Positions 8,746 to 57,011 of a stretch of DNA of 64,000 bases are shown piece by piece (the first letter of the stretch is position 1; each line of letters opens with the position of its first letter). A program made the position numbers and the translations under genes. The DNA is taken from positions 85,007-149,006 of the forward strand of contig JAFXYF010000011.1 in the NCBI GenBank assembly GCA_017541885.1, given 5' to 3'. The DNA comes from Bacilli bacterium. GTDB taxonomy: Bacteria; Bacillota_I; Bacilli_A; RF39; UBA660. The notes under the pieces are model-generated. The model was not told the DNA's origin, ran no database searches, and saw only the letters and a list, made by a program, of their open reading frames with translations.

Positions 8746-8801
8746 AGTTTTGTTTGCTTTAAATATTATTTTAGATTATAATAATAATTGGAGATGATTA
8801 A

Positions 8802-9365: not shown

Positions 9366-9374
9366 GAGGTCTCT

Positions 9375-10376: not shown

Positions 10377-10437
10377 TTTCTCTTTTTTTATTTATTAAAA
10401 TATGTTATAATTATGCGTAGTTGTGGAGGGGATCTCA

Positions 10438-11463: not shown

Positions 11464-11533
11464 TAAAGAAACATCGAATTGACATAATCGATGTTTTTTG
11501 TTAGTATAAAAAGCTATCAGGGAGTGTGTGGTT

Positions 11534-12490: not shown

Positions 12491-12542
12491 CTCTTTTTTC
12501 TTGTTTAGAATAAAAAAATCCTGTATAATAAGGTGGAATTGA

Positions 12543-13670
<1,128 letters not shown>

Positions 13671-13681
13671 TACTTGCTTTT

Positions 13682-13915
13682 TTATATGTAAAAAATAGGA
13701 CTATTATGATTTTCTTGAGTAGTATTATCATCTTTTTCATTCATAATTGAAGTAATATTTTTAAGTACATGAAAATTATCAATCATAGGTCTCACTTGAT
13801 TATAAATAGGTATAGCTTGATTAACTAAATTTAAAGTTTTAGAAGCTCCATCTAAAAATCCAGCATAATCAAAGCCTTTAATTAAAGATAATAAATTGTT
13901 TCCATTAGGAATCAT
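13682..13915 (-). CDS. Small VrrA/YqfQ-like protein
   Basis: L..A.KTL....QAIP...QV.PM..N and a C-terminal P.FYI, as in YqfQ. RBS GAGGTG. Confidence 0.55.
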   Translation of the reverse strand: MIPNGNNLLSLIKGFDYAGFLDGASKTLNLVNQAIPIYNQVRPMIDNFHVLKNITSIMNEKDDNTTQENHNSPIFYI

Positions 13916-14032
13916 AAGAACACCTCAAAATATTATATGAAGAAAATAAAGAAAAGTTTAAAATAGTATTTAAAATTAAAATTAACTATGTTAAAATAAA
14001 ATAGTATAAGAATAGAGAGAGGAGGAGTATCA

Positions 14033-42265: not shown

Positions 42266-43891
42266 ATGAAAAGAAAAAAGAAAGATTTTAAGAAACACGG
42301 TTTATTAAAAAGTATAATTATTTCACTTTTATTCGCAGGTATTTATTACTATATTTCTTATCCTGCATTAGATATTCATAATCTAGGTTTATGGATGTAT
42401 ATTATTTCAGTACTAGTAGTATTTTTAATATGTCAAACAGTATTCCATACAGGATTAGTAATAGAAGATTTACAAACAGGAAAAATATCAGTACAAAATC
42501 ATAAGATAATGAAATTATGGTTAGCAGTACCAGCAATTATAATTATTTTAGTTTTAGTCGCAATACTTAACTCTGCAATGTTAAATGCCAAAAAGTATTA
42601 TAAGAGAATTGAAATAGATACAACTAAAACATTCCAAGAAGATCTACCAGAAGTAGACTTTAATAAATTACCATTACTAGATAAAAAATCATCATCTAAA
42701 TTAGGAGATCGTGTAATGGGTGGTATGAGTGAATTAGTATCACAGTATGATGTATCAGATGAGTACACTCAAATCAATTATAACGACGAAATTATAAGAG
42801 TTACACCTCTAGAATATAATGGAACAATAAAATGGTTTACAAACCGTGATAAAGGTATTACAGGCTATATTACAGTTAATTCTACAACAGGTAAAGCAAA
42901 ACTAATTAAATTAGATAAAGGATTAAAATATGCACCTTCAGCATTATTTAATGAAAACCTATATCGTAAATTACAATTTAGTTATCCAACTAAAAACTTT
43001 GATGCAATTAACTTTGAAATAGATAATTCTGGTAATCCATATTGGGTTGCAAGTGTAGTTAAATATCATGGAATTAATCAAAGAAGAGAAGTAACTGGAG
43101 TAGTAATATTTAATCCAATTAATGGAGAATCAAAATATTATAAATTAAAAGATGTACCTTCATGGGTAGATCATGTATATGAAGCAGAATTAATTCTAGA
43201 ACAAGTAAATGACTGGGGAGCATATAAAAATGGATATTTAAACTCAGTATTTACTCAAAGAGATGTAGTCGCAACTACTACAGGATATAACTATCTAGCA
43301 TTTAATGATGATGTATATCTATATACTGGTATTACATCAGTTTTAGCAGATGAATCAAATATTGGATTTATTCTTACAAATATGAGAACTAAAGAAACAA
43401 ACTTCTATAGTGTTGCTGGAGCAGAAGAGTACTCTGCAATGGACTCTGCAAAAGGTCAAGTACAACAAATGAAGTATACATCAACATTCCCATTATTAAT
43501 TAATTTAAATGGACAGCCAACATATTTAATAAGTCTAAAAGATAATGCTGGACTAGTTAAAATGTATGCCTTTGTAGATGTAGTAGACTATCAAAAAGTA
43601 GTAGTAACTGATGCCTCTAAAGGAATAGAAGCAGCAGCTGATGCTTATTTAACTCAAATGGGAGAAGAATCAGGAACAAGTAAAAATACTAAGACAATTA
43701 ATGTTTATGGTATCAAAGAAGTAATAATTGATGGTAATACAGTTTACTATTTCACAGATCAAAATAATCAAAAATATAAAGTATCAATTAAAGTAAATAA
43801 AAACAGATTACCATTCTTAAAAGAAGGAGAACAAGTAGAAATCGAATATAATAAAGAACAAGAAGTAATTAATATTACAGAACTTAAATAA
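42266..43891 (+). CDS. Conserved Firmicutes membrane protein with large extracellular domain
   Basis: Three N-terminal TMs; LGDR, RVTPLEY, FEID..G.PYW, YTGITS...DESN.GF and AEEYSAM.SA.G.VQ. Confidence 0.75.
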   Translation: MKRKKKDFKKHGLLKSIIISLLFAGIYYYISYPALDIHNLGLWMYIISVLVVFLICQTVFHTGLVIEDLQTGKISVQNHKIMKLWLAVPAIIIILVLVAILNSAMLNAKKYYKRIEIDTTKTFQEDLPEVDFNKLPLLDKKSSSKLGDRVMGGMSELVSQYDVSDEYTQINYNDEIIRVTPLEYNGTIKWFTNRDKGITGYITVNSTTGKAKLIKLDKGLKYAPSALFNENLYRKLQFSYPTKNFDAINFEIDNSGNPYWVASVVKYHGINQRREVTGVVIFNPINGESKYYKLKDVPSWVDHVYEAELILEQVNDWGAYKNGYLNSVFTQRDVVATTTGYNYLAFNDDVYLYTGITSVLADESNIGFILTNMRTKETNFYSVAGAEEYSAMDSAKGQVQQMKYTSTFPLLINLNGQPTYLISLKDNAGLVKMYAFVDVVDYQKVVVTDASKGIEAAADAYLTQMGEESGTSKNTKTINVYGIKEVIIDGNTVYYFTDQNNQKYKVSIKVNKNRLPFLKEGEQVEIEYNKEQEVINITELK

Positions 43892-43914
43892 CATGTAGGT
43901 TTGGGGTGAAGTAG

Positions 43915-45414
43915 ATGAAAAAGAAAATAGTATGTTACTATCCATTTTTAGGTACAGAATTAAATGATAGTATGTTTAAAAATACTGCATCATGGGAATA
44001 CTATTTAAAATGTTTATTAGAAAAAGATGATATAGAAATTCATACATATGACAGAGTAGATTTAGATAATGTAGATTATGTTTTATTCTTTGATAATATC
44101 TTTTATCAAAATCTAGATATAATGTGGAAGTTATATAATAAAAAGCTTCTAGAAAAAAGTGTCTATATAAATTATGAGCCAGTAACAGGTCATGCTAAAA
44201 ATCATGATGCCAAAGGTATGGAAAATCTTGCTAATATATTTAGTAAAATAATTACATTTGATGATGATATAGTAGATAACAAAAAGTTTATTAAAGGAAA
44301 TATTGCAAACTTCTATAGTAAAGAAAAAGAATATAAACATGATTTTAAAGATAGAAGACTAATCACAATGATTTCTAATAATACAACTAAAGATAGTGTA
44401 ATAAAACTATTAAATTATTATAATTACACAAAATATTTTAATAGATCAAATATTAAAGAAGATGAACATTCAATCTACCTAGAAAGAGTAAAAGTAGCAA
44501 ATTATTTCTTAAAAAAGCATAAAGATGATTTTGATTTATATGGTGGTTTATGGAGTAAAAAATATAATAAGATTCATAAAGGCTATGTAGAAAGAGAAGA
44601 GAAATTAGATATTCTAAGTAAATATAAATTTGCTTTTAGTTACGATTCATATACAAATCAAAATGGATATATCTCAGAAAAAATATTTGACTGTTTTAAA
44701 GCAAAAACAGTTCCAATCTATTTAGGTGCAGATAATGTAACAGATTATATTCCAAAAGAATGCTTTATTGATAAAAGAGACTTTAAAACATACGATGATT
44801 TATATAATTATTTAGTAAATATGGATGAAAAAACATATGAACATTATATAAAGAATATTGAAAAGTTTTTAAATTCAAGTAAATATAAAGAATACTTTTC
44901 AAGTGAACAATCAGCAAAAAGAATAAAAACAGCTTTAATGACAAGTAATAAAATTAATTATTTAAAAGCTTATAATAGTTTAATGTATTTTGAAAATAGA
45001 AGAAGAAAAGTACATAAGAAAAAAATAATGTATTATACATTAAGACATATTTATCATAAAGAACATAAAATAGAAGTTAATTTTAAAGTAAGAAGAGGAT
45101 CTAATATTAGAATAGAATCAAATGGTCTTGTAGAACCAAAAGATATAAGATTAGATTATACAGATAGTTTTAGTGTTAAATTTGATTACTCAGTAAAAGA
45201 CTTCTTTATAAAAGTTTATAATATAAATGCAGATGAATATTTTAACTTTATAAGTATGAATGAAGAAAACGATAGAGAATTTGGTCTATTACCAAAAACA
45301 AGTAAAACATTAATTTACTATAACTATTCAGAAGCAAAAGGTATTAAAAAGTTACTTTATGTATTATTACATAACAAAAGAACTTTATTAAAAAGAATAA
45401 AAAGACAATTGTAA
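43915..45414 (+). CDS. Glycosyltransferase family 10 (alpha-1,3-fucosyltransferase-like)
   Basis: YKF...........GYISEKIFD.....TVPIYLGA, the GT10 signature. Confidence 0.85.
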   Translation: MKKKIVCYYPFLGTELNDSMFKNTASWEYYLKCLLEKDDIEIHTYDRVDLDNVDYVLFFDNIFYQNLDIMWKLYNKKLLEKSVYINYEPVTGHAKNHDAKGMENLANIFSKIITFDDDIVDNKKFIKGNIANFYSKEKEYKHDFKDRRLITMISNNTTKDSVIKLLNYYNYTKYFNRSNIKEDEHSIYLERVKVANYFLKKHKDDFDLYGGLWSKKYNKIHKGYVEREEKLDILSKYKFAFSYDSYTNQNGYISEKIFDCFKAKTVPIYLGADNVTDYIPKECFIDKRDFKTYDDLYNYLVNMDEKTYEHYIKNIEKFLNSSKYKEYFSSEQSAKRIKTALMTSNKINYLKAYNSLMYFENRRRKVHKKKIMYYTLRHIYHKEHKIEVNFKVRRGSNIRIESNGLVEPKDIRLDYTDSFSVKFDYSVKDFFIKVYNINADEYFNFISMNEENDREFGLLPKTSKTLIYYNYSEAKGIKKLLYVLLHNKRTLLKRIKRQL

Positions 45415-45427
45415 TAAGGAGGATTAT

Positions 45428-46309
45428 ATGTCAAAAGTTTTTTTCACAAAAGATATTACACCTGAAAGCTTAATCAAAATCTATGAAGCATTAGGAGTAG
45501 AATTAACTGGAAAAGTAGGAGTAAAAGTATCTACCGGAGAAAAAGGAGCAAAAGGATATTTAAAAGCTGATTTAATTGCTCCGTTAGTAAAAAAACTAAA
45601 TGGTACTATTATTGAATGTAATACTGCATATCCAGGTGCAAGAAACACTAAAGAAGATCATTTAAAAGTAGCAGAAGAACATGGATTTACTTCATTTGCT
45701 GATGTAGACATTATGGATGGAGATGGAGAATTTAAAATACCAGTACATAATGGAAAACATCTAAAATATGATATAGTTGGAGAAAACTTTAAAAACTATG
45801 ATTCTATATTAAATTTAGCTCATGGAAAAGGTCATGCAATGGGAGGCTTTGGAGCAAACTTAAAAAATCAATCAATTGGTATCGCTTCACGTAATGGAAA
45901 AGCATATATTCACAGTTGTGGTCAAACAGAAGATCCAGATCTATGCTGGAGTGCTAAGTATGAACAAGAAGACTTTATTGAATCAATGGCAGAAGCTGCT
46001 ACTGCAGTTGCAGACTACCTAAAAGAAAACAATAAGCCAATTGTTTATATTACAGTTGCTAATGCTATCTCAGTAGATTGTGATTGCGATGCTCATCAAG
46101 GAGATCCAGTAATTGGAGACATTGGAATATTTGGAAGCTTAGATCCAGTTGCAAATGATCAAGCATTTATTGATGCTATTTGGGCAACTCATGAAGAAGG
46201 AACAAAAGATATTGAAGAGAGAATCGATACAAGATGTGGAAGACATATTACAGAATATGCTGAATCTTTAGGATTAGGCTCAAAAGAATACGAATTAATA
46301 GAAATCTAA
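45428..46309 (+). CDS. DUF362 family (Fe-S) protein
   Basis: VK...GE.G, ECNT.Y...R, H.KGH.MGGFG..LKN..IG, DCDC and S.DPVA.DQA. Confidence 0.85.
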   Translation: MSKVFFTKDITPESLIKIYEALGVELTGKVGVKVSTGEKGAKGYLKADLIAPLVKKLNGTIIECNTAYPGARNTKEDHLKVAEEHGFTSFADVDIMDGDGEFKIPVHNGKHLKYDIVGENFKNYDSILNLAHGKGHAMGGFGANLKNQSIGIASRNGKAYIHSCGQTEDPDLCWSAKYEQEDFIESMAEAATAVADYLKENNKPIVYITVANAISVDCDCDAHQGDPVIGDIGIFGSLDPVANDQAFIDAIWATHEEGTKDIEERIDTRCGRHITEYAESLGLGSKEYELIEI

Positions 46310-46369
46310 AAAAATAAAAAAAGGAATGAAATTCATTCTTTTTTTTGTTATACTGATTATGGTGATAAT

Positions 46370-46897
46370 ATGGAAAAGAGACTAACAAAAAAAGAAATAG
46401 TTAAAATGCTATTAAAGAACAATGAATTAGAAGCACAAGATGAAGAAGAATTATTAGATTTATTAGTAGATCAACCAATTAGTATTGATGTAGATAAACA
46501 AGAAGAAGCAAAGATGACTAATGGAGATCGTCTAGCAGATAAACTAAGTGAAATTGCCGGATCATGGGAATTCATTATTTGCTTTTCTGGATTTTTAATT
46601 CTTTGGGTTGTTATTAATTCATATGTATTAACAAATGGTTCAGAAGTAGATCCATATCCATTTATCTTACTTAATTTAGTATTATCTTGTATTGCTGCAC
46701 TACAAGCACCAGTAATTATGATGAGTCAAAATAGACAAGCAGCTAAAGACAGTTTAAGAAACCAAAATGATTATCGTACAGATTTGAAAAGTGAACTTAT
46801 ACTAGAAGATCTTCATCATAAAATGGAAGAAATCTTAAAGAATCAAAGAAAAATATTAAGAATAATTGATTCCGACGAAGAAGAAGATAAAAAATAG
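46370..46897 (+). CDS. DUF1003 membrane protein
   Basis: GSW.FI and DPYPFILLNL.LS..AA.QAP.IMMSQNRQ. Confidence 0.92.
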   Translation: MEKRLTKKEIVKMLLKNNELEAQDEEELLDLLVDQPISIDVDKQEEAKMTNGDRLADKLSEIAGSWEFIICFSGFLILWVVINSYVLTNGSEVDPYPFILLNLVLSCIAALQAPVIMMSQNRQAAKDSLRNQNDYRTDLKSELILEDLHHKMEEILKNQRKILRIIDSDEEEDKK

Positions 46898-46908
46898 TAG
46901 GTGTATTT

Positions 46909-47688
46909 ATGTCTAAGCCATTATATGAAAAGTTTATGGAAGAAAAGAATACTCCTCTAACAAAAAGATTTATAGAAGATAGTTTCAATATTATGATAAG
47001 AGAAGAACCTGAATTAGAACCTTTTATAAATGATTTTAGAGTGGTTAGGGCGAGTGAAAAGAATCTTGGAACATATTCAAATGAAAATAGAGTAATTAGA
47101 ATAAATCAAAAAAATATTGAAAGACAAGGTGGCAATGAACAATTAAATGCTCTAGAAGTAATAAGACATGAAATGGAACATGCCAGAGCCCTAAAAAAGT
47201 TTTATGAAGGAAGAGATGATATAGAATCTCTAATAATAAATTACTCTCTAAGAGATTATGCAATGATGATGGGAATGGATAGATTTCCAAATCTAGATAA
47301 TCTTAGTTGGCCTTATTTAAAGTTTAATAAGAAATAAAACTATGAAATTGATCCAGGAGAAAGATTAGCCGAAATAAAAGCTTGGAAGTATATGGTAAAC
47401 TTTTTAAAGAATCAAAGAAAAACAGATGATTTATTAACCGCAAGATCTAATTTATATTATGCATATATTAGAGGATACTTAAATAATAGATATTATTTAG
47501 ATGCTCCAACATATGAATTTTTAAGAAAAACAGGAATGTATCATAATTATCATTGGTTAAAGAATAGGGTAGATAAAAAAGATTATTCATTTGAAACAAG
47601 AATAACTTATGGTCTTCCAATTACATATCAAGAACATGAAGAAAAAGTTCTAAAAAAAGTATTATTAAAAAAACGTGAAAGAGAATAA
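46909..47688 (+). pseudogene. Zincin-like (HEXXH) protein interrupted by an in-frame TAA
   Basis: ORFs 46909-47337 and 47392-47688 are in the same frame. Reading through TAA (47335-47337) gives HEMEH...NYEIDPGERLAE. Confidence 0.7.
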
Positions 47689-47742
47689 TTTTCTCTTTTT
47701 TTGTTTTAAAAAATGTTGTATGATTAATGAGAAGGTGAAAAA

Positions 47743-49203
47743 ATGGAAATAGGTTTTGATAATAAAAAATATGTAAAAATTCAAAGTGAAAAAATTAAAG
47801 AAAGATTCACATTATTTGATAAGTTATATCTAGAAGTAGGAGGTAAATTGTTTGATGACTCTCATGCCGCAAGAATTCTTCCAGGCTTTAAAAACGATGT
47901 AAAAATATCAATGTTTAAAGAATTAAAAAAAGATCTAGAAATAATCTTTTGTATTAATGCCGGAGATATTGAAAAAAATAAAACAAGAGGAGAATATGGC
48001 ATTACTTATGATCAAGAAATATTAAAGTTAATTAATAATTCTAAGAAAATGGGATTTTCTGTAAATAGTGTCGTAGTGACTCTCTATAAGAACCAAGTAA
48101 GTGTCGATAAATTTATTAAGAAACTTAATCGTAATGGCATTAAAACCTATATTCATACATTCACTAAAGGGTATCCAACAGATGTAGATACAATCGTTTC
48201 AGAAGAAGGCTATGGAGCAAATCCATACATTGAAACAACTAAAAAATTAATATTAGTAAATGCTCCAGGACCAGGCTCTGGTAAACTAGCAACTTGTCTA
48301 TCTCAAATCTATCATGAAAATAAAAGAGGAGTTAATGCTGGTTATGCTAAATTTGAAACATTCCCAGTATGGAACTTACCTCTAAAACATCCAGTAAACT
48401 TAGCTTATGAAGCTGCAACAGCAGATTTAAAAGATGTAAATATGATTGATCCATTCCATTTAGAAAAATATGGAACAATTGCAGTTAACTATAATAGAGA
48501 TGTAGAAACATTCCCAATTCTAAAAAATATTTTAAGTAAAGTATCTAAAAAAGATATTTATAATTCACCAACAGATATGGGAGTAAATATGGTAGGTTTC
48601 TGTATTACAAATGAAAGTGTAGTAGAAGAAGCATCTAAAAAAGAAATAGTAAGAAGATACTATAATGAATTAAATAATTATAAAATGGGTCTTTGTGATG
48701 AAGATACATATAAAAAGATTAAATTATTAATGAATGAATTAAAGATAGATGAAAACTATCTTGATGTTATAAAACCTGCTTTAGAAAAGAAAGAAAAAGA
48801 AAATGGATTACCAGTAATTGCAATCGATACAGGAAATAGAATTATTACTGGAAAACAAACTGATTTAATGACCCCAGCAGGTACTGCAGTATTAAATGCT
48901 CTAAAGCATATAAGTAGAATTCCAGATATCTATTTATTATCTCCAACAGTTCTAGAACCAATTCTAAAATTAAAGAAAGATATGGGTAATAATGAAAGAT
49001 TAACTTTATCAGAAGTATTAACTGCTTTAAGTATTTGTTCAGTAACAAACCCAGTAGCTTATAAAGCATTAAAGAATATTAAAAAGCTTCAAGGATTAGA
49101 AGCTCATTCAACATATATAGTAACAGGTAGTGATAGAAAAACATTAAAAGAATTAAAGATAAATCTTACTTGTGAAAATGACTTTTTAGAAGAGAATTTA
49201 TAA
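47743..49203 (+). CDS. DUF1846/UPF0371 family protein
   Basis: GFDN.KY..IQS..I.ER, KLYLE.GGKLFDD.HAAR.LPGF, APGPGSGK.ATC and YAKFETFP.WN.PL.HPVN.AYEAAT. Confidence 0.92.
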   Translation: MEIGFDNKKYVKIQSEKIKERFTLFDKLYLEVGGKLFDDSHAARILPGFKNDVKISMFKELKKDLEIIFCINAGDIEKNKTRGEYGITYDQEILKLINNSKKMGFSVNSVVVTLYKNQVSVDKFIKKLNRNGIKTYIHTFTKGYPTDVDTIVSEEGYGANPYIETTKKLILVNAPGPGSGKLATCLSQIYHENKRGVNAGYAKFETFPVWNLPLKHPVNLAYEAATADLKDVNMIDPFHLEKYGTIAVNYNRDVETFPILKNILSKVSKKDIYNSPTDMGVNMVGFCITNESVVEEASKKEIVRRYYNELNNYKMGLCDEDTYKKIKLLMNELKIDENYLDVIKPALEKKEKENGLPVIAIDTGNRIITGKQTDLMTPAGTAVLNALKHISRIPDIYLLSPTVLEPILKLKKDMGNNERLTLSEVLTALSICSVTNPVAYKALKNIKKLQGLEAHSTYIVTGSDRKTLKELKINLTCENDFLEENL

Positions 49204-49262
49204 TTCTCTTTTTTTATTTATAGTAATGTGTTATAATATTGCTTTCCAAAAGAGGGGATACT

Positions 49263-49688
49263 ATGTATAAAATAAGAATAGTTTGTAATGACTCTGATTT
49301 AGATGAAGTAGAACAAATTAGAAAAGAAGCATTTCATCTAAAAGAAAATGCCATTAATACTTTTAAAAAACATATTGAAAATGGTAAGATGATTGCGTTT
49401 TCTCTAGAAACAGAAGACGAAAAAATAGGTGGATGTTATCTAGGAGAATACAATAATACTTTATATGTCTATTATTTGTTTTTAAAAGAGTCATATCAAA
49501 GAAGTGGTAAAGGAATAGGTAGAAGATTCTTACTAGAAATATTTAATCATAAGAAAGCAATAGAACTAATATTAAAACATAATTATGAGTATTCATCTCT
49601 TCATCCAACATGTACTAAACTAACTGAAATGTATAAAGAAATAGGCTATCAAGAACAAACTAAAGGATACTATGTAAAAAGAATATAA
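49263..49688 (+). CDS. GNAT family acetyltransferase
   Basis: LFL..SYQRSGKGIG (motif A) and MYK.IGY. Confidence 0.7.
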   Translation: MYKIRIVCNDSDLDEVEQIRKEAFHLKENAINTFKKHIENGKMIAFSLETEDEKIGGCYLGEYNNTLYVYYLFLKESYQRSGKGIGRRFLLEIFNHKKAIELILKHNYEYSSLHPTCTKLTEMYKEIGYQEQTKGYYVKRI

Positions 49689-49699
49689 AAAAAGAGCTA

Positions 49700-49975
49700 T
49701 TATTTAGCTCTTTTATTTTCTCTAACTGACTCTGTATAAGCATTAACTGTATCTAATGCATTATCATAAGCAGGTACTACTTCATATCTACCATTATCTG
49801 CATCCCAAACTCTTCTCCAACATTCAAATAGATCTTTTGTTTCGTTCTTTATAATAAATACTTCAGGTTCAGTTTGACCATTTTTAAATATATTTGTAAG
49901 TAGTTGAGTTTTTTCATCAGTATCTAATTCTGCATTTAATATAGCAGTTAATAAGTCTTCTATAGTAAATCCCAT
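49700..49975 (-). CDS. Hypothetical protein
   Basis: GGAGG RBS before ATG at 49975; normal amino-acid composition. Confidence 0.6.
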   Translation of the reverse strand: MGFTIEDLLTAILNAELDTDEKTQLLTNIFKNGQTEPEVFIIKNETKDLFECWRRVWDADNGRYEVVPAYDNALDTVNAYTESVRENKRAK

Positions 49976-50146
49976 ATATTTACCTCCCATCGACACATTA
50001 TTATATAAATTTTTTATAATTTGTCAATTAATATTTACACATAGTAAAAAATATAACTTTGTTGATATATAAAGGGAAAATAGTGTAAGATTATACATTT
50101 ACAAATTTCACTTTACAGCACCACTCGACAAATTTTTAAAAAACTA

Positions 50147-50174
50147 TTGCATTTTTATAAATGTGTAGTATACT
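50147..50174 (+). promoter_or_regulatory. Sigma-A-type promoter with no downstream ORF
   Basis: TTGCAT (50147-50152), 16-nt spacer, TATACT (50169-50174); A/T-tract UP-like element upstream. Confidence 0.6.
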
Positions 50175-50179
50175 TAAAT

Positions 50180-50888
50180 TACTATTAAAGATACAAGTAT
50201 ATTTATCGAATACCTGTAATCAATAATAGTATAGGTAATATTATAAAAAATAAAAAAACATAATATTATCTAACCCGATAATATTTCAATAAAAGGAATA
50301 TTATCACACATAGGTTACACTTATTAATATATATAAGTATGTTAACAGCTATATTTTATAATTTTATGTACTAACATAAATTATTAAATATAGAAATATT
50401 ATTATATTAACAAATAACTATTATATTAATAAAAATAACTATTATATTTAACAAACTATTATATTAAAAACAAAATTATTATTAAAAAAACAAATTATTA
50501 TTAAATATCAAATTATTATATAAAATAATGTATTATGGTAACATAATAAATAAAAATATAATAAAAAATAATAATTTAAAAAAATAATAATTCAAATATA
50601 ATAACTACAAATATAATAATTATCTAATATAATAATTACCCAATATAATAATAAAGTACATAATTAATAATCTATTAACTATAGATAAAGTTATTTATGA
50701 TATAGTAATACCTGTATATATTATCTCATTCACCTTCTATTATCATTACAGCAAACAGTAAAGTAAATGAGAGTAAGAAAGTCAAAACTTATTTAAGTGG
50801 ATATATTAATAATTTATCGATGCATAGATATTTTATTAATGGTCGTTTGCAGAAAGAAATTAATTTGACAGATTAATTTCTTTTCTTT
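50180..50888 (+). ncRNA. Candidate large structured non-coding RNA (~700 nt), family unassigned
   Basis: No ORF of 60 aa or more. Serial hairpins, an 8-stem nested ladder (50397-50653) and two possible pseudoknots, bounded by a promoter and a terminator-like hairpin. Confidence 0.6.
50851..50888 (+). terminator. Terminator-like hairpin ending the candidate ncRNA
   Basis: agaaattaat-ttgacag-attaatttct followed by tttcttt. A second, weaker terminator lies at 50930-50955. Confidence 0.55.
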
Positions 50889-50973
50889 ATGAGTAGTTCG
50901 ATTTATTAGAATTTACTTTTTAAAACAGGAAAGAGACTTAACGGCCTCTTTTTTTGTATAAGAAAAAGAGATC

Positions 50974-51627
50974 TTAGATCTCTTTTGAATTCTTATATAT
51001 TGTAATTGTTAAAGCTATTAGGAATAATAATATATCTATATTTCTTAAGAAATATAAAGTTTCAGAGAATACCACTCTAATATTTAAATAAATCATTATA
51101 CTTCCAATATGCATACCCATCATTGATAAAGCAATAAATCCAATCGCAACAAATGCAAGAATAGTAAATATTTTATATGGGAAATGTTTCTTTATTGTTA
51201 ATCCTAAAATACTTAATCCTACCCATACATGGAATAATAAAGTTGTAATGTCTTGCATTAGATAACTTATTTCTTGAATAAGATAAGCAGGATAACTAAA
51301 CATATGCTCTGCAGTCTTAGACATAAACATTATTTGTGATACAAGATCTTTAACATTTAAAATAAGCAATAATACAATTGCAATTAATGAAAGTATATTT
51401 GTAATAGTAGTAGTTCTATATTTTGTCATACTAACAATTAAGAATACAATTATAATTCCATCTAATACTAAAGTAGATAAGAATCTAAATATCATATCTG
51501 GAATATTATCAACAAAATAGTTACCAACAGAGAAGTTATAAATAAGAATTATTAAATATAATAAAATATATAACGCAAAACCAACGATTCCTAATATAGG
51601 GAATAACTTATTTCCTTTCTTTTTCAT
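50974..51627 (-). CDS. Multi-pass membrane hypothetical protein
   Basis: About 6 TM segments; AAAGGAG RBS. Confidence 0.7.
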   Translation of the reverse strand: MKKKGNKLFPILGIVGFALYILLYLIILIYNFSVGNYFVDNIPDMIFRFLSTLVLDGIIIVFLIVSMTKYRTTTITNILSLIAIVLLLILNVKDLVSQIMFMSKTAEHMFSYPAYLIQEISYLMQDITTLLFHVWVGLSILGLTIKKHFPYKIFTILAFVAIGFIALSMMGMHIGSIMIYLNIRVVFSETLYFLRNIDILLFLIALTITIYKNSKEI

Positions 51628-51746
51628 TATTATTCTCCTTTCTTATTATTAATTATACTACTATATTAAAAAATCTTATAGATAAAAATAAAATGTTCGA
51701 TTGATTTTTATTTCGATAAAGATTAATATGATTCTAGGTGATGAAT

Positions 51747-52511
51747 ATGAGAATACCAATCTTTTTAAAAGAAAATAAAAATACTTATAAAGACGAGTAT
51801 TTACAAATAATTAAAGTATTATCAAGTAAATGTTTAATATATGAAAAGAATAGTTATTCTTATTTTGAGTTCATTAATTCTTATCTATTTCATAATTGGG
51901 AATATAGAGGGACATATTTAGATGTATATAGTTATTTAGAAAGTATCGGAATAAATCTAAATAATAAAAAGATTCATGAAGAAAACTTCTTATCATTTTT
52001 AGAGTTTATTTTAAATATAAATTTATTATTAGAATCTAAAAAGTATAAGAGTATAACATTTAGTGATAAAGCTAGTAGTATTCTATTTCATAACATTCCA
52101 ATAATTATAGATAATCTAGGATATTCTATCTATGATATAGATGATAAGATTTATATATTAAATAAGGATATAGAATATGATAATTTAATGGAACTAGTAC
52201 CAAATGATTTATATCCTCTAATTATGAGTTATAATCTACCTTCAAATAAAGGTATTAAGATGAAAAGAATAATTCTAAATAAAATCTATAATATAATTAA
52301 TGATAAATATAAAGTATATAATCCTTCAGTATATTCAAGTATTAAAACTATAATTACAAAAATGGGTATAATAGGGGATATTGATAAGAAATATAAAAGT
52401 TTAAGTACTTATAAATTAAAGAAATATTATGATTATTGTTTAGAAATGATCATTTATTTAGTAAAAAGTAAAGCAATATATGAATTTAGAGATGAAGTAA
52501 AAGCAGAATAA
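51747..52511 (+). CDS. Hypothetical protein
   Basis: Long ORF with AGGTGA RBS; no motif recognised. Confidence 0.6.
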   Translation: MRIPIFLKENKNTYKDEYLQIIKVLSSKCLIYEKNSYSYFEFINSYLFHNWEYRGTYLDVYSYLESIGINLNNKKIHEENFLSFLEFILNINLLLESKKYKSITFSDKASSILFHNIPIIIDNLGYSIYDIDDKIYILNKDIEYDNLMELVPNDLYPLIMSYNLPSNKGIKMKRIILNKIYNIINDKYKVYNPSVYSSIKTIITKMGIIGDIDKKYKSLSTYKLKKYYDYCLEMIIYLVKSKAIYEFRDEVKAE

Positions 52512-52564
52512 CTTGCTTTTCTTTTTGTTTGGAATTATAATAAATGGCAATTAGAGGTGGGTTT

Positions 52565-53362
52565 ATGGTTAAGAAATCTAAAAAAGATATTTTTATGGAA
52601 GAACATAAAGAAGAAATAAAGAGAGAACTTACAAATAATAGTATAGTTTTATCATTTGCATTTGCAATTATTGTAATTGGATTTATATCATGCTTTTATG
52701 AAACAGGTAATGGACTATTAATAGGTATAGCTTTATCTACATTATTATTAACTTTAATTCAATGTTTTAGTAATGGTAATACAATGCTAAATATTCTACC
52801 AATATTTACAATGTTAGCATTTGGATTCTTTGGAGGATTTATTGAAAAGATTCCTGTAGTAAATCTATTATTAAATGAATCATTACGTAACTTTATTATA
52901 TTTTTAGCATTTGCTTTATCATTCTTTACTCAAGCTTATAAAAATGTTATTTATCAAGCAAATTTAAAGAAACTAGAATTAGAATCAAATAATAATAAGA
53001 ATAAGATGATGTTAGCTCAATTATCTACAGATAAAAAGATAGTAGAATTAGCTAAGAAGATTAAACATATATCAGAAGAAAAAGGTATTCTTGATTTTCA
53101 GTTTAATCAAGCACTCCTAGATTTAATTAATTATATTGATGCAGAAAGTTTTGTCACAACAGTTAAATCAAGTTTAGTAATGAAAGGTAAAGATGAAAAG
53201 AAAACTACATTCGCAATTGAAGAAGTAGAAGAATCTATTCTAATGAGTAATGGCGTTAGTCGTGAAAGAGAAATAAATGCTAAGAAATTCAATGATATGT
53301 CACTAGACGAAACAGAACCAGAAGAAGAAGATCCATTTGATTTCGATTTTAAATTTGATTAA
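52565..53362 (+). CDS. Membrane protein (4 TM) with cytoplasmic coiled-coil C-terminus
   Basis: Hydrophobic N-terminal half and charged tail; GAGGTG RBS. Confidence 0.65.
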   Translation: MVKKSKKDIFMEEHKEEIKRELTNNSIVLSFAFAIIVIGFISCFYETGNGLLIGIALSTLLLTLIQCFSNGNTMLNILPIFTMLAFGFFGGFIEKIPVVNLLLNESLRNFIIFLAFALSFFTQAYKNVIYQANLKKLELESNNNKNKMMLAQLSTDKKIVELAKKIKHISEEKGILDFQFNQALLDLINYIDAESFVTTVKSSLVMKGKDEKKTTFAIEEVEESILMSNGVSREREINAKKFNDMSLDETEPEEEDPFDFDFKFD

Positions 53363-53443
53363 AAAGAAGATAGAAATCTTCTTTTTTTGTTTGACTACAA
53401 CTTTTAAAGGCCTTATAATTATATATAGGATAGGAAGTGCGTT

Positions 53444-54928
53444 ATGAAAAAATATTTTCTAATTATGTTTGTTTTTTTATTTGGATTTTTCGTTATGCCA
53501 TTTGTACATGCCGAAGAAATTCCAACAGAGGGTGTTACATATTTCTTAACATATCCTAATGGAGATGAAGATGTAGTTGAATCATACTCAATGTTAAAGG
53601 ATATTAAAGAAAAATTATTGTATGACGGTTATACAGATAGTGAAGGAAAAGTATATTTAACTGGATGGGCAGAACAAGGAAAACTAAGAATATTACAAGA
53701 AGTACCAGATGGATATTCTACTAATTTAAGAGAAGCAAGAGTAGATTTATCAAAAGCTAATAATTTTAGCTTTGTAAATTATAAAGGACTAAGTAATCCT
53801 CAAACTAGTAGATCCGTAATTATTGTTGCTATTGTATTATTAGTATTAGGAATAAGTTTCTTAGTTATTAGTAAAGATAAAAAGAAATCATTAGTAATAG
53901 TACCAATTCTATTAGTAATGTTTGGAGTATATCATGCAAATGCGTGGAGCAAGTCATTTATTATTTCAGTAAATGATGGAAAAGGAAATCCTTTAAGTAA
54001 TGTACATGTACTTGTATATGGTGAACCAGTAATAGATCCAGCATTAGCTGTTAAGATTGATGCCAATGGTGGTACATTCTTTGATGGATCTACATCAATG
54101 TACTTTAGATTACCAAAAGCTAATTGCAGTATGGAAGAGTTTACTGAATCATTAAGTGATGCAGATTATGATTATTTTACAGATAATATGTATAATGCAT
54201 ATCGTAATGGTTACAATATGATTTATCCAGAAATTCCAGAAGTATTAAATAATGGATCAGTATTAAGATTAGGTTGGGTTGAATCAGAAAATGCTGATGT
54301 AGTAATGATTCATGGAAATGGTGGAACAATAGATTTCTACGGAAAGAAATTACATGATGTAGCATTCTATAAAGAAATGTTTAGTACAGATTCTGTTAGA
54401 GATTTCAAAAATACAGGAATGTATTATGTAGGTGTTGATAATAACGCAAATTGTTCTCATTATAAGAAAGATGGTTCTCTAAATGATCCAAATAATGACC
54501 TACACTTTAGAGAAGATGAATTTAGAGAAGTATATTACATTTGTTGGAATAATAAACCAGATGGTATTTACATTAATGGAGATTTATTCTTAGGTACAGT
54601 TGATTCTTGTTATGAAGGATCAGAAATGCTATATTCAGATGATTATATGTCATTATTTAATGGATATAATACTGCATTTGTAAATACTGCTGCAGATACA
54701 ATTGAAATATCATATTTCAAAGATAATGATTCTGAATCATTACCTGATATAGATAGTGATGTTATTACTTCAGTAGAAATTGTTAAGAATGGACAAACTA
54801 TTCTTACATTAAATACAAGTGAAATGCTATTCAAAGGTAGTTATTATCAAATTAATAATACTAATAAGAATGGTGTATTTATCGATTATTTAGATGAATT
54901 ATATACTAAAGGATGCTTTGAACAATAA
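53444..54928 (+). CDS. Exported surface protein with internal sorting/TM hairpin and InlB B-repeat-like (DANGG/HGNGG) modules
   Basis: Signal peptide (..VHA), SpaA-like segment (TD.EG...L, E.P.GY), NPQTS plus TM, a second hydrophobic segment, then xNGG repeats. Confidence 0.6.
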   Translation: MKKYFLIMFVFLFGFFVMPFVHAEEIPTEGVTYFLTYPNGDEDVVESYSMLKDIKEKLLYDGYTDSEGKVYLTGWAEQGKLRILQEVPDGYSTNLREARVDLSKANNFSFVNYKGLSNPQTSRSVIIVAIVLLVLGISFLVISKDKKKSLVIVPILLVMFGVYHANAWSKSFIISVNDGKGNPLSNVHVLVYGEPVIDPALAVKIDANGGTFFDGSTSMYFRLPKANCSMEEFTESLSDADYDYFTDNMYNAYRNGYNMIYPEIPEVLNNGSVLRLGWVESENADVVMIHGNGGTIDFYGKKLHDVAFYKEMFSTDSVRDFKNTGMYYVGVDNNANCSHYKKDGSLNDPNNDLHFREDEFREVYYICWNNKPDGIYINGDLFLGTVDSCYEGSEMLYSDDYMSLFNGYNTAFVNTAADTIEISYFKDNDSESLPDIDSDVITSVEIVKNGQTILTLNTSEMLFKGSYYQINNTNKNGVFIDYLDELYTKGCFEQ

Positions 54929-55077
54929 ACTATAAAAAAGAAGGATAAAAAAGGAAGACAAAACCTTCCTTTTTTGTTGATATTAAAAGGTTTTAAGTGT
55001 CAAAAGTGTAAAGTTTCGTTGAAATAAAACAAAATCTTAGGTATAATAAAATAGAGTTCAATATTAGGAGTGAGAAT

Positions 55078-56985
55078 ATGTCAGATAAATATGATGCAAA
55101 GTCGATTAAGATCCTTGAAGGACTAGAAGCAGTTAGAAAAAGGCCTGGAATGTATATAGGATCTACTGATAAAAGAGGATTACATCATTTAGTATGGGAA
55201 ATTGTCGATAACAGTGTTGATGAAGCTATCAATGGATATGGAGACTACATTAAGATAACTCTACATAAAGATGGTTCTGTATCAATAGAAGATCATGGTA
55301 GAGGTGTACCTACAGGGATGCATGAATCTGGTAAATCTACTCCTGAAGTAATTTATACAATTCTACATGCTGGTGGTAAATTTGAACAAGATGGCTATAA
55401 AGTATCAGGAGGTCTACATGGAGTAGGTTCTTCTGTAGTTAATGCTTTATCTAAGTGGATGGAAGTAACCATTAAAAGAGATAAAGAAGAATCATATATT
55501 AGATTTGAGAACGGTGGTCATGTAGCAGTTCCTCTAAAAGTAATAGGAACTACTAACAAAACAGGTACTACTGTTCGTTTTATGCCTGATCCAGAAATTT
55601 TCTCTACAACAAGTTTTTCATATACTACCATTTGTGAAAGAATGCAAGAATCTGCTTTCTTGCTTAAAGGTATTACAATTGAAGTATTAGATGAAGAAGA
55701 TGGAAGAGATAATAAATTCCATTATGAAAGAGGAATTGAAGAGTATGTTGAAGAATTAAATAAAGGAGAAAATACTCTTCATAAGATTCTTACTTTCGAA
55801 GGAAATAAAGATAAAATTGAAGTAGAAATATCAATGCAATACACAGATACTTATAATGAAAAAATTGTAAGTTTCGTAAATAATGTTAAAACTGTCGATG
55901 GTGGTTCTCACGAAGTAGGATTTAAAACTGCTTTAACTCGTGTATTTAATGATTATGCTAAAAACAATGGCTTTGTTAAAGGTAATGATAAAGCATTTGA
56001 AGGTAGTGATGTAAGAGAAGGACTTACCGCTATTATCAGTTTAAAAATTCCAGAAGGAATTCTCCAATTTGAAGGACAAACTAAAGGTAAATTAGGAACT
56101 CCTCAAGCAAAAAATGCTGTTGAGCAAATTGTAACTCAAAACTTACAAACTTATTTAGAAGAAAATAAAGCTATCGCAACAGATATTATTAATAAGAGTT
56201 TAAAGAGTAAGATTGCTCGTGAAGCCGCAAGAAAAGCTCGAGAAGAAGCTCGTAAAGGAACTTCTAAAAAGAAAGAAGAAAGATCGCTTTCTGGTAAACT
56301 TGCTCCAGCTCAAAGTAAAGATAAAACAAAGAATGAATTATTCTTAGTCGAGGGAGATTCTGCTGGAGGTTCTGCTAAAGGTGGAAGAGATAGAAAATAT
56401 CAAGCTATACTTCCTTTAAGAGGTAAAGTATTAAATACTGAAAAGACTAAAGAAGATGACATTTTAAAGAACGAAGAAATAAATACAATTATTTATACAA
56501 TAGGAGCTGGATATGGTTCTAACTTTGATATAGATGATTGTCAATATAATAAAGTAATAATCATGAGCGATGCTGATGAAGATGGAGGACATATTCAATG
56601 TCTATTACTAACATTCTTCTATCGTTACATGAAACCATTAATTGAAGATGGTAGATTATTTGTTGCTCTACCACCATTATTTAAAATCCAAAGTGGTAAA
56701 GAAGTAGAATATGCTTATACAGTAGAAGAGATGCAACAAAAAAGTAAAGGTAAGAAATGTGAAATTCAAAGATATAAAGGTTTAGGTGAAATGAATGCAG
56801 ATCAGTTAGCTGATACTACTATGAAACCTGGAAGTAGAACTTTAATAAGAGTAAACATTGAAGATGCACAACTTGCTGAGAAGAGAGTTTCTATTCTTAT
56901 GGGAGACGATGTACCTCCTAGAAAAGAATGGATTGAAGAGAATGTAGAGTTCTCTCTTGAAGACGATTATAAAATTGCTAGTTAA
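55078..56985 (+). CDS. parE: DNA topoisomerase IV subunit B
   Basis: LEGLEAVRKRPGMYIGST, EGDSAGGSAK.GRDR, PLRGKVLN, QRYKGLGEMN and PRKEWIE.NV.F; adjacent to parC. Confidence 0.93.
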   Translation: MSDKYDAKSIKILEGLEAVRKRPGMYIGSTDKRGLHHLVWEIVDNSVDEAINGYGDYIKITLHKDGSVSIEDHGRGVPTGMHESGKSTPEVIYTILHAGGKFEQDGYKVSGGLHGVGSSVVNALSKWMEVTIKRDKEESYIRFENGGHVAVPLKVIGTTNKTGTTVRFMPDPEIFSTTSFSYTTICERMQESAFLLKGITIEVLDEEDGRDNKFHYERGIEEYVEELNKGENTLHKILTFEGNKDKIEVEISMQYTDTYNEKIVSFVNNVKTVDGGSHEVGFKTALTRVFNDYAKNNGFVKGNDKAFEGSDVREGLTAIISLKIPEGILQFEGQTKGKLGTPQAKNAVEQIVTQNLQTYLEENKAIATDIINKSLKSKIAREAARKAREEARKGTSKKKEERSLSGKLAPAQSKDKTKNELFLVEGDSAGGSAKGGRDRKYQAILPLRGKVLNTEKTKEDDILKNEEINTIIYTIGAGYGSNFDIDDCQYNKVIIMSDADEDGGHIQCLLLTFFYRYMKPLIEDGRLFVALPPLFKIQSGKEVEYAYTVEEMQQKSKGKKCEIQRYKGLGEMNADQLADTTMKPGSRTLIRVNIEDAQLAEKRVSILMGDDVPPRKEWIEENVEFSLEDDYKIAS

Positions 56986-57011
56986 TTAAAATATTTAGAA
57001 AGAGTGATTAT

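Follow-up and report, generated by a model that had tools for sequence, protein, structure and literature searches.

The window analysed here, a 64-kb stretch of DNA from a small-genome uncultured Bacilli bacterium of the rumen, contains one long gap that is free of genes, and the locus raises the question of what this gap encodes. A first-pass annotation had read it as a large, ornate non-coding RNA of ~700 nt, belonging either to the ROOL or GOLLD class or to an undescribed one. RNA-based regulation is almost unstudied in such bacteria. To our knowledge, few large structured bacterial RNAs without an assigned function have been described, and the discovery of every new class has led to new biochemistry. 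The locus adds a candidate that has no match in Rfam, shows compensatory evolution and joins a compact conserved core to a highly unusual, near-invariant repeat ladder.

Coding content, promoter and terminators

The stretch from 50024 to 50976 (953 nt, GC 0.17) is the only one of at least 250 nt in the window that lacks a stop-to-stop frame of at least 70 codons, and the earlier description of a unique ORF-free gap thus holds at these thresholds. Under translation table 11, just four ORFs of 20–24 amino acids overlap positions 50000–50970. With table 4, the longest stop-to-stop frame within the gap has 71 codons and consists of low-complexity array sequence; an alternative genetic code was rejected, as it yields no gene frame. 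The gap is without coding potential.

A candidate promoter on the plus strand (TTGCAT-16-TATACT, 50147–50152 and 50169–50174) is present as annotated, but it is weak, agreeing with the consensus at 8 of 12 positions, and is missing from the list of a consensus promoter scan. Transcription from this promoter (50147–50174) would start near 50181 and would end at a plus-strand hairpin (50852–50884), the loop of which contains UUUGAC, with a U-rich tail to 50892, giving an RNA of ~710 nt. A second hairpin (50930–50951), followed by a run of seven Ts to 50957, could serve as a back-up terminator and lengthen the RNA to ~775 nt; the terminator scan lists it also for the minus strand, and it either has this role or belongs to the convergent gene as its second terminator. 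A bidirectional terminator-like hairpin from the same scan (50964–50986) overlaps the stop codon of that gene, which encodes 217 amino acids. The terminator hairpins that had been proposed for the end of the unit were therefore found again.

In six RNA-labelled ruminant-gut runs from six studies, 0.32–0.55 of 89 sampled words were present, a measure of word content that carries neither strand nor extent and may include DNA carry-over. Such words also occur in 14 DNA runs. The putative RNA is probably expressed in ruminant-gut communities.

Folding energy and conservation of the unit

Compared with 20 shuffles, the whole unit folded with z = −10.9 on the plus strand and −6.5 on the minus strand. 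For single segments (60 shuffles, plus/minus strand), z was −5.5/−4.5 in the 5′ domain, −5.2/−8.2 in the repeat ladder and −1.2/−3.8 in the 3′ core, and three control segments of the same composition gave −0.2 to −1.4. The energy signal stems from the 5′ domain and the ladder. When the annotation is held against shuffled sequence, the whole unit, the 5′ domain and the ladder therefore beat chance, whereas the plus strand of the 3′ core does no better than its shuffles. As the minus strand of the ladder is the more stable one, folding energy alone does not favour the plus strand.

A related strain is represented by two metagenome contigs, L040 and L038. Identity to this strain amounts to 96.2% in the promoter region (50130–50182), 95.6% in the 5′ domain, 98.5% in the ladder (259 of 263 positions) and 90.0% in the 3′ part, compared with 80.7–87.7% in the flanking genes and 78.3% in the adjacent intergenic DNA just upstream of the promoter. 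Against L040 and L038, the unit is more conserved than the neighbouring genes and lies above both neutral and coding levels. The near-identity of 50232–50660 could reflect a recent recombination tract instead of selection.

When the minimum-energy fold of the window alone was compared with L040, seven pairs were compensated, six of them local (one each in P1, the small hairpin and the terminator, three in the long hairpin), and 13 pairs were broken, mostly long-range ones. The count of zero broken pairs obtained for the consensus fold against L040 is partly circular. The global minimum-energy fold, including its pairing between the 5′ and 3′ parts, was rejected because these long-range pairs are broken in L040, and what finds support is a series of local hairpins together with a single junction, located in the 3′ core. 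Differences in L040 avoid the paired columns of the 5′ domain (P 0.04, window-only fold). Of the large ornate RNA, the plus-strand unit with promoter, hairpins and terminators is supported, but a global ornate fold is not established in view of the 13 broken pairs.

Hairpins of the 5′ domain and the repeat ladder

The first plus-strand hairpin in the fold, P1 (50183–50231), has an outer stem ACTAT/ATAGT and an inner stem GTAT/ATAC. Its inner pair 50197–50213 changes from G-C to A-U in L040, and in the alignment with the related strain, judged by eye, an outer T-A pair becomes C-G and an A.C mismatch becomes G.U. Two further hairpins (50234–50270 and 50277–50305) have arms made of four copies of a self-complementary 10-mer, ATAATATTAT. 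As the stems within 50234–50305 are invariant in L040 and L038, they carry no covariation information, and the ATAATATTAT sites could alternatively be operator-like sites on DNA. Hairpins P4 (~50310–50346) and P5 (50349–50393), predicted on the plus strand by minimum-energy or two-sequence consensus folding, differ from the related strain by a single indel. A small hairpin, ATCTAT-TAACT-ATAGAT (50670–50686), is predicted on the same strand beyond the ladder and is invariant in L040. The stems listed in the first-pass annotation were all recovered by minimum-energy or two-sequence consensus folding, from these five hairpins and the ladder to the 50670–50686 hairpin, the TCTCATT/AATGAGA helix and the ATTAATAA/TTATTAAT hairpin.

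The ladder itself (50393–50655, ~260 nt) is built from ~7 direct and ~8 inverted ATTATTATATT units. Seven direct units of the form (A/C)TATTAT(A/T)T start at 50398, 50418, 50439, 50456, 50475, 50494 and 50512 with a period of 17–21, and the inverted units, ATATAATAAT, about eight in number, are found from 50541 to 50652 with a period of 11–16, so that the dyad centre falls near 50535. As a single strand, the ladder is predicted to fold into ~7 nested A-U helices of 9–12 bp with asymmetric A-rich internal loops between them. Within its own genome it is unique (13 motif matches per 300 nt, with 8 for the next-best place), and two array-like matches there, L003 and L004, were rejected as plain low-complexity sequence. 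The related strain differs by four substitutions and one indel, and all five columns lie in predicted loops or spacers (binomial P 0.005). Equally, the ladder could be a repeat array that works at the DNA level. RNase III was found in the genome, so that processing of the ladder is conceivable.

A conserved 3′ core

The 3′ core (50690–50892, plus strand, ~200 nt) is common to four lineages, namely the window, the L040 strain and two further genomes of the genus, G039 and G007, with covariance-model scores of 222, 221, 160 and 71 bits, respectively. It comprises hairpin H1 (50697–50729), a helix TCTCATT/AATGAGA (50724–50730 with 50766–50772), a closing helix GCAAAC/GTTTGC (50751–50756 with 50845–50850), a small hairpin (50773–50792) with the loop AAAGUCAAAA and a long hairpin (50800–50844) with the loop GAUGCAUA at 50819–50826, all on the plus strand. 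All four sequences share the architecture of a junction closed by GCAAAC/GTTTGC, with a short hairpin (loop GUCAAA) and a long one (loop AUGCAU) inside it and the terminator hairpin after it. In G007, the closing helix keeps five pairs, one of which has become G.U, and the UUUGAC box precedes the terminator loop instead of sitting inside it.

The loops GAUGCAU and GUCAAA and a GUUUG..CAGAAA box are invariant in the four sequences, and the adjacent stems vary. The 5′ edge of the core carries a further box, GATAT(A/T)G, which all four keep. UUUGAC in the terminator loop is complementary to the GUCAAA loop of the short hairpin. Judged from sequence, the palindromic AUGCAU and the complementary loops suggest loop-loop contacts or self-association, which leads to predictions on dimerisation or tertiary kissing contacts.

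In a three-sequence MAFFT alignment, 11 of the 58 predicted pairs are still paired after changes on both sides. The four-sequence alignment raises this number to 18 of 58, with 93.3% of cells paired, compared with 39.5–47.3% when partners are slid by 1–3 columns and with none of 500 shuffles reaching the observed value; as this alignment had been fitted to the model, its pair counts are biased in favour of the structure, and two of its four lineages are close. Covarying homologs, which had been proposed as a check, were thereby found in the related strain, G039 and G007. The cells of the four-sequence core contain 26 G-U and one A-C combination, which argues for the plus strand. The earlier argument that G-U pairs favour plus-strand RNA thus holds in the conserved 3′ core, but folding energy by itself adds no such preference.

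Distribution

The core and the remainder of the unit were searched for separately and together. In a BLAST search across the family, 209 of 401 genomes matched the gap, almost all through the AT-rich array, and among the matches listed G039 alone matched the 3′ part. Eight array-like matches in the genus were rejected, as all eight lie inside open frames. Against 30 relatives, the flanks of the gap were matched and the gap itself was not. Separate searches with the 3′ and 5′ parts in 47 genus genomes gave only G039 for the former and nothing convincing for the latter. With the covariance model, two real matches to the core were obtained in 46 other genomes of the genus, G039 and G007 (the latter at E 1.6e-12), and a 22-bit match in G006 was rejected as a coding region plus a terminator. 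Under stricter filters, model R2 matched none of 40 other genomes in a family sample.

Pattern scans identified eight loci in metagenomes, two of them real, and 27 in genome contigs, one of them real; three viral scans gave 6, 6 and 17 loci, and none of these held up when checked by BLAST, inspection or model R2. When plasmids and phages were searched with the gap by BLAST, no homolog was found, the only matches being AT-rich ones to Stammera and a promoter-like one of 75 nt, in which the promoter region is 81% identical to the region of the cro-side promoter in Lactobacillus prophages. As for the 5′ ~500 nt with the ladder, they were seen solely in the lineage of the window and the L040 strain. 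They are missing from the G007 homolog, whose own 5′ part shows no homology to the 5′ domain (Smith-Waterman score 21, shuffles 22.6 ± 3.4). With no homolog beyond the L040 strain, the 5′ domain and the ladder could be a feature of their own. So far, the RNA appears to be narrowly distributed, in a few related rumen bacteria of one genus.

Neighbouring genes and genomic context

The convergent gene (50974–51627, minus strand) encodes a multi-pass membrane protein of 217 aa without a match in Pfam, PHROGs or PADLOC. In the genus, 2 of 47 genomes have it, G000 and G039, and each of them also has the RNA; it is further present on L038, and the G039 copy is 29% identical (E 7e-13). On the other side lies a divergent orphan gene of 91 aa (49700–50027, minus strand, ATG at 49975) with a sigma-70 promoter at 50027–50000 that agrees at 12 of 12 positions. 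This gene was found in none of 46 other genus genomes and occurs in L040 at 86.6% DNA identity. Neighbours within ~3 kb are a GNAT acetyltransferase, a DUF1846 protein and orphans without a Pfam, PHROGs or PADLOC family. Eight neighbouring proteins searched against PHROGs and PADLOC gave acetyltransferase matches and one weak match (the 91-aa protein, PADLOC, E 0.0019), and no phage protein family was found among the neighbours with PHROGs. The window has no tRNA gene, no tmRNA by ARAGORN and no switch in GC skew.

The other copies lie in different surroundings. In G007, the RNA gene is located directly upstream of an AbiEi/AbiEii pair; the element that carries it, ~7.4 kb long, encodes a large serine recombinase and interrupts a PBP gene. 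The RNA and the membrane-protein gene of G039 are separated by a gene of 244 aa. In both genomes, a separate promoter for the next gene seems, by eye, to follow the terminator, and the gene that comes next in the window runs convergently, which argues for the RNA as an independent unit. Neither Hfq nor CsrA was found in the 98%-complete genome, and a role as a sponge for either protein was therefore rejected.

Searches against known RNA families

No family of Rfam 15 reached the gathering score anywhere in the window. At E ≤ 10, positions 49950–51050 gave 11 matches, none of them to ROOL (which we take to be RF03087), GOLLD (presumably RF01998), OLE, RNase P, tmRNA, 6S or an intron, and the homologous loci L161 and L043 had no match to ROOL, GOLLD, OLE, RNase P, tmRNA or an intron at E ≤ 1. 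Such permissive searches returned only chance-level matches to terminator-like small RNAs. Of the two classes of answer offered by the first-pass annotation, membership in ROOL or GOLLD thus falls away for want of a model match, and an undescribed class agrees with the result at gathering score. OLE, RNase P, tmRNA, 6S and group I/II introns were rejected for the same reason. A limited text search found no paper on such an RNA. The supplementary lists of PMC5737381 could in principle hold the motif, but motifs of that kind are in Rfam, where no match was found.

Interpretation

The reading to which we incline, with modest confidence, is that the gap holds a plus-strand structured non-coding RNA gene of a family outside Rfam, located in variable or mobile DNA and joining a conserved 3′ core to a 5′ extension that is specific to this lineage. 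The 5′ ~500 nt, with five hairpins and the 260-nt ladder, would then be an extension of the same transcript that is particular to this lineage. The RNA would act in trans and not as the leader of a neighbouring gene, may work via its conserved loops, either by intramolecular loop-loop contacts or because the palindromic loop lets it associate with itself, and may bind protein as well; its gene would travel with variable or mobile DNA. We hold it to be rather unlikely that the whole ~710–775-nt unit forms a single large RNA, of a class not yet described, in which the ladder is a scaffold of about seven one-turn A-U helices with conserved A-rich asymmetric loops. Repeated complementary arms and the AUGCAU loop would in that case pair in several registers or between molecules and give multivalent assemblies made of RNA alone or a platform with several protein sites, which would correspond, on mobile islands, to the ROOL and GOLLD nanocages.

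Less likely than the favoured reading, but carrying real weight, is a composite locus, in which only the 3′ ~180–200 nt are a small RNA gene with its own extended −10 (TG-A-TATAGT, 50698–50706), and the ladder, perhaps together with the four ATAATATTAT palindromes, is a double-stranded array to which proteins bind, as at iterons, centromeres or operators, and which either is a remnant of a mobile element or serves one. The core alone is common to several species and occurs in G007 without any ladder, and the GATAT(A/T)G box reads, by eye, as an extended −10 in the window and L040. Seven direct and about eight inverted copies of one 9–11-bp core with fairly regular spacing look iteron-like, the cores never vary (all five differences being in spacers), and dyad symmetry with better folding on the minus strand is what a symmetric site on DNA would be expected to show. 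However, spaced binding sites alone would not require spacers that are near-invariant too (5 changes in 263 nt, compared with ~20% divergence of neighbouring intergenic DNA). Conservation extends to the upstream promoter and to P1, with compensatory changes, which points to transcription entering the array from 50181, and the terminator scan found no terminator between ladder and core. Nor does a replication, partition or recombinase gene adjoin the array in the window, and the array is single-copy in the genome.

Three other explanations have less in their favour. Bacillus has type I toxin-antitoxin pairs that overlap at their 3′ ends, and the RNA might likewise be a cis-antisense or 3′-overlap regulator of the membrane-protein gene. 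The two co-occur in G000, L038 and G039, the protein being limited to RNA carriers among the 47 genus genomes, and in the window both units converge on shared terminator hairpins (50930–50986), but the idea seems quite improbable, as the intervening 244-aa gene rules out an overlap in G039, the membrane protein was not found in G007 beside its RNA, 217 aa is far above the size of a type I toxin, and what is conserved in the RNA is found upstream of the first terminator and not in the overlap. Non-functional AT-rich intergenic DNA or a decayed element, with chance hairpins at 17% GC and L040 identity from recent recombination, is disfavoured and considered very unlikely. Extreme AT content does inflate pairing, the array is matched by low complexity in 209 of 401 family genomes (with all eight places examined in the genus inside open frames), and the 3′ core has z = −1.2. 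Against this, three further lineages retain the core in other surroundings, with its loops invariant and pairs compensated, controls of the same composition reach only −0.2 to −1.4 compared with −5 to −8 in the 5′ domain and ladder, and L040 differences avoid paired columns both in the 5′ domain (P 0.04) and in the ladder (P 0.005). A divergent member of ROOL, GOLLD or OLE would agree in size (~710–775 nt), rumen origin, location in variable or mobile DNA and, as far as the available part of the GOLLD description goes, in having conserved 3′ and variable 5′ regions (10.1101/2024.12.08.627333), but it is hardly credible given that none of the three models matched the window at gathering threshold, 49950–51050 at E ≤ 10 or L161 and L043 at E ≤ 1, and that the window has no tRNA gene.

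Comparison with known systems

Antitoxin RNAs of type III toxin-antitoxin systems (ToxI-type) consist of direct tandem repeats followed by a toxin gene on the same strand. The structured RNA favoured here shares with them a promoter-driven non-coding array with short direct repeats and a place in defence or mobile DNA, the G007 RNA lying beside AbiE. However, half of the repeats in the window are direct and half inverted, so that they form a hairpin, the downstream gene is convergent, and the G007 copy beside AbiE has no repeats; the combination of direct repeats, terminator and same-strand toxin gene was not found at the locus. Iteron and centromere arrays are known from parC of R1 and the iterons of P1 and F. 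The ladder resembles them in its many 9–11-bp cores with roughly regular spacing, its two opposed blocks and its AT-rich DNA. Unlike them, it has no adjacent Rep or Par gene (no initiator or centromere-binding gene was found within ~3 kb), is a single chromosomal copy, has spacers as conserved as its cores and lies inside a promoter-to-terminator unit.

Among large RNAs, ROOL, GOLLD and OLE have recently been shown to form RNA-only multimers, according to the part of the report available (10.1101/2024.12.08.627333). ROOL and GOLLD often occur close to tRNA genes or within prophages; at the locus described here, neither a tRNA gene in the window nor a phage protein family among the neighbours was found, but the G007 copy lies in the element with the serine recombinase. 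ROOL was first obtained from cow-rumen data, has a mean length of 581 nt and is often located in prophages, as stated in the accessible portion of its description (PMC5737381). The new RNA likewise comes from ruminant-gut samples and lies in variable DNA, but it differs from ROOL in having no model match, one junction, at most one or two candidate loop-loop pairings and one genus of origin. GOLLD occurs in prophages and other variable DNA and has a conserved 3′ region, a less conserved 5′ region and palindromic, self-interacting kissing loops, again by the available part of the source (10.1101/2024.12.08.627333). There, the exchange of one palindrome for another served as evidence of pairing between molecules in OLE and GOLLD. 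Unlike GOLLD, the new RNA has no Rfam model match, a core of only ~200 nt, no tRNAs nearby and one genus so far, and its A/U repeat ladder has no counterpart in that part of the GOLLD description. Within the same limits of the source, it is like GOLLD, by resemblance and not by membership, in combining a conserved 3′ core with a lineage-specific 5′ part and in carrying an invariant palindromic AUGCAU loop, with one copy located in a serine-recombinase element.

The ORF-free gap and its signals

The reading best supported for the ORF-free gap at 50024–50976 is a gene for a structured RNA on the plus strand, belonging to a new family of narrow distribution. The window, chromosomal DNA of a 1.45-Mb genome, has a GC content of about 27%, and the gap (953 nt, GC 0.17) is the sole place in the 64 kb without a 70-codon stop-to-stop frame, which bears out the first-pass annotation of a single ORF-free gap of about 1 kb. 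No ORF above 24 aa was present in it under table 11 and no convincing frame under table 4. Minus-strand genes flank it on both sides, namely a 91-aa acidic orphan (ATG at 49975, span 49700–49975) and a 217-aa membrane protein (50974–51627). The orphan has a perfect sigma-70 promoter at 50027–50000, divergent from the candidate plus-strand promoter of the RNA, TTGCAT-16-TATACT (50147–50174). On the plus strand follow five hairpins from 50183 to 50393, an imperfect palindrome of 260 nt (the ladder, 50393–50655), a short hairpin at 50670–50686 and a further structured stretch, the 3' end of which is a 15-bp hairpin at 50852–50884 with a U-rich tail; two additional terminator-like hairpins lie at 50930–50957 and 50964–50986. 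The promoter and terminator hairpins named at first reading are present in the sequence, and every one of the stems listed then was recovered in sequence and folds.

Several smaller repeats were also observed. Two neighbouring hairpins (50237–50305) have arms made of the self-complementary 10-mer ATAATATTAT, which is present there in four copies, two perfect and two imperfect; all four are unchanged in the related strain described below and could equally be operator-like DNA sites. The loop of P1, the 5'-most hairpin (loop at 50204–50212, UAUCGAAU), is complementary to GUUCGAU at 50896–50902, 3' of the first terminator, and both are invariant in the related strain while their surroundings vary. 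A long-range contact between them is possible, only with read-through to about 50957. An exact 10-nt direct repeat, AATACCTGTA, occurs in the P1 hairpin (50209–50218) and at the 5' border of the core (50707–50716), and its two copies diverged differently in the related strain.

Conservation in a related strain

When the 3 kb around the gap were compared by BLAST with 30 relatives, the flanking genes were matched and the gap was not. The two flanks occupy different contigs in those relatives, so the gap marks a break in synteny. The DUF1846 block and the block of 257-aa, 272-aa, parE and parC genes (42266–57000 compared with the relatives' loci L021–L025) are each conserved in the genus and lie on separate contigs in the relatives examined, and the 2.5 kb between them here (GNAT, 91-aa gene, RNA and 217-aa gene) are lineage-specific.

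An exact-word scan of metagenome contigs yielded two true homologs among eight loci, both from a related strain. These contigs, L040 (counterpart of 49075–51226) and L038 (counterpart of 50238–52471), overlap and agree, by eye, at all positions except one. The four flanking genes are 80.7–87.7% identical to those of the window, and the intergenic DNA at 49976–50129 is 78.3% identical; the values inside the unit are 96.2% for the promoter, 95.6% for the 5' domain, 98.5% (259/263) for the ladder and 90.0% for the 3' part. Set against L040, the fold of the window alone has 7 compensated, 6 one-sided and 13 broken pairs. Local hairpins account for six of the seven compensated pairs (P1, the small hairpin at 50773–50792, three in the long hairpin at 50800–50844, and the terminator) and the broken ones are mostly long-range, so the local hairpins are supported and the global architecture is not; an ornate fold of the whole ~700-nt unit is not established. 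A consensus fold, derived from both the window and L040 sequences, has no broken pair over 59 differing columns, with compensation in 6 pairs and one-sided G-U changes in 6.

The conserved 3' core

A family-wide BLAST, followed by a covariance model from three sequences, showed that the last ~200 nt (50690–50892) recur in G039 (160 bits) and G007 (71 bits, E 1.6e-12), which are two further species of the genus; the G039 contig breaks off 45 nt 5' of the core. A match of 22 bits in G006 was dropped as coding region plus terminator. No additional member was found in a sample of 40 other family genomes with stricter filters, nor in a genome_contigs scan, in which the one real locus among 27 is the G039 stretch itself, and none of 29 loci in three viral-contig scans was real. 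A hairpin-like 29-mer shared near the contig ends by two contigs of one rumen MAG (L133, 25–53; L148, minus strand) is a chance match of the genome_contigs pattern and unrelated to the RNA of the window; it may be a repeat element of that MAG.

The homologs also supplied the covariation anticipated for a structured RNA. Of 58 predicted pairs, 11 still pair after two-sided changes when three sequences are aligned by MAFFT, and 18 do so in a model-fitted alignment of four sequences; the latter leans to structure, which makes the MAFFT count the more cautious one. In the fitted alignment, 93.3% of cells pair as compared to 39.5–47.3% with slid partners, and the observed values were reached in 0 of 500 shuffles. 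Pairing is complete (100%) in the helix TCTCATT/AATGAGA, which shows one double change and two single ones. As this helix and the invariant GCAAAC/GTTTGC helix cross, they form a pseudoknot or are alternatives. The earlier argument that G-U pairs favour plus-strand RNA was upheld for the core, where 26 G-U cells as compared to one A-C cell point to the plus strand as the one encoding an RNA. Three loop or linker sequences are unchanged while adjoining stems vary: GAUGCAU at the tip of the long hairpin, which includes the palindrome AUGCAU, GUCAAA in the loop of the small hairpin, and GUUUG..CAGAAA 5' of the terminator. GUCAAA is exactly complementary to the UUUGAC of the terminator loop in the window, in L040 and in G039.

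The repeat ladder and a composite locus as the main rival

The ladder is more complex than a plain inverted repeat: its left arm holds seven direct copies of (A/C)TATTAT(A/T)T with a period of 17–21, and its right arm about eight copies of the complement of that unit with a period of 11–16. As a single strand, it is predicted to fold into ~7 nested A-U helices of 9–12 bp with asymmetric A-rich internal loops between them. Nothing equivalent was found elsewhere in the genome (13 motif matches per 300 nt as compared to 8 at the second-best place), and two BLAST look-alikes were mere low complexity.

The main rival to a single RNA gene is a composite locus, in which a small RNA, driven by an extended -10 promoter of its own (50698–50706), would adjoin a double-stranded DNA repeat array. 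The G007 RNA has no ladder and a 5' part unrelated to that of the window; by eye, it also has a promoter-like site of its own some 210 nt 5' of the core. All five columns of the ladder that differ in the related strain fall in predicted loops or spacers (P 0.005). Compared with dinucleotide shuffles, the whole unit folds with z = -10.9 on the plus and -6.5 on the minus strand, the 5' domain with -5.5 and -4.5, the ladder with -5.2 and -8.2 and the 3' part with -1.2 and -3.8, three control segments of the same genome giving -0.2 to -1.4. Energy alone thus backs structure in the 5' domain and ladder and little in the 3' part, and does not discriminate between the strands; the expectation of better folding than shuffled sequence held for the whole unit and these two segments and failed for the 3' part on the plus strand. 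In the preferred reading as one RNA gene, the ~200-nt 3' core would be under structural selection, and a ~500-nt 5' extension including the ladder would be carried in the lineage of the window.

Genomic context and possible expression

Downstream, G039 is syntenic with the window: between the RNA and the 257-aa/272-aa/secreted-protein/parE/parC block common to both lie, in this order, a gene of 244 aa, a convergent gene for a 218-aa membrane protein and a gene of 629 aa. The 218-aa protein is 29% identical to the 217-aa protein of the window (E 7e-13), and this membrane protein occurs in 2 of 47 genus genomes, in both of which the RNA is present. At the G007 locus (L163 = G007:C2:22000-41000, reverse-complement ~6422–15681), a penicillin-binding-protein gene is split in the transpeptidase domain by a segment of ~7.4 kb that opens with the RNA, the N-terminal part of the gene covering profile positions 2–167 of 299 and the C-terminal part 170–298 plus a PASTA domain. 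Besides the RNA core, the segment encodes AbiEi/AbiEii, an ABC-type ATPase and a 141-aa orphan, and a large serine recombinase adjoins the C-terminal fragment at the far end. The 5' part of the G007 RNA (L161, ~1800–1850, minus strand) also has a strong Shine-Dalgarno-like AGGAGG and then a 12-codon GTG-start frame, which could be a leader peptide or chance. In both species the next gene after the RNA terminator has an apparent promoter of its own (by eye), which argues that the RNA is not a leader.

The plus-strand promoter region of the window (50130–50204) is 80–81% identical over 75 nt to the cro-side cI/cro promoter of the Lactobacillus prophage Lj771 and phage JNU_P11 (L018 2501–2570 and L019 2501–2570), with the block TATTGCATTTTTA.AAATGTGTAGTAT nearly identical; this fits a mobile-element flavour. 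Among the neighbours in the window, no PHROGs or PADLOC family was found except for acetyltransferase matches of a 149-aa protein and one weak PADLOC match. The 91-aa orphan, with one weak PADLOC match (E 0.0019) and no Pfam or PHROGs family, is present in L040 and in none of 46 other genus genomes. RNase III is present in the genome; neither Hfq nor CsrA was found.

In a word index, a 901-nt query had 0.74–1.00 of its 89 words in 14 gut or bovine-gut metagenome DNA runs from eight studies, four of these runs coming from a single study and three of those four being possible source runs. In six runs labelled as RNA, from bovine or sheep gut and each from another study, the share was 0.32–0.55 of the 89 words, which is no more than suggestive of expression, as word matches fix no part, strand or depth and DNA carry-over is possible.

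Comparison with known RNA families

Rfam 15 gave no family at the gathering threshold across the whole window and, at E<=10 in the gap, chance-level matches only, around terminators; no tRNA or tmRNA was found in the window. Within the reach of their models, this excludes ROOL, GOLLD, OLE, RNase P, tmRNA and introns, and the membership in ROOL or GOLLD considered at first was not supported. Despite its exclusion by the model test, GOLLD has a similar layout: as described, it is alike in its conserved 3' region, variable 5' region, palindromic loop and association with mobile or variable DNA.
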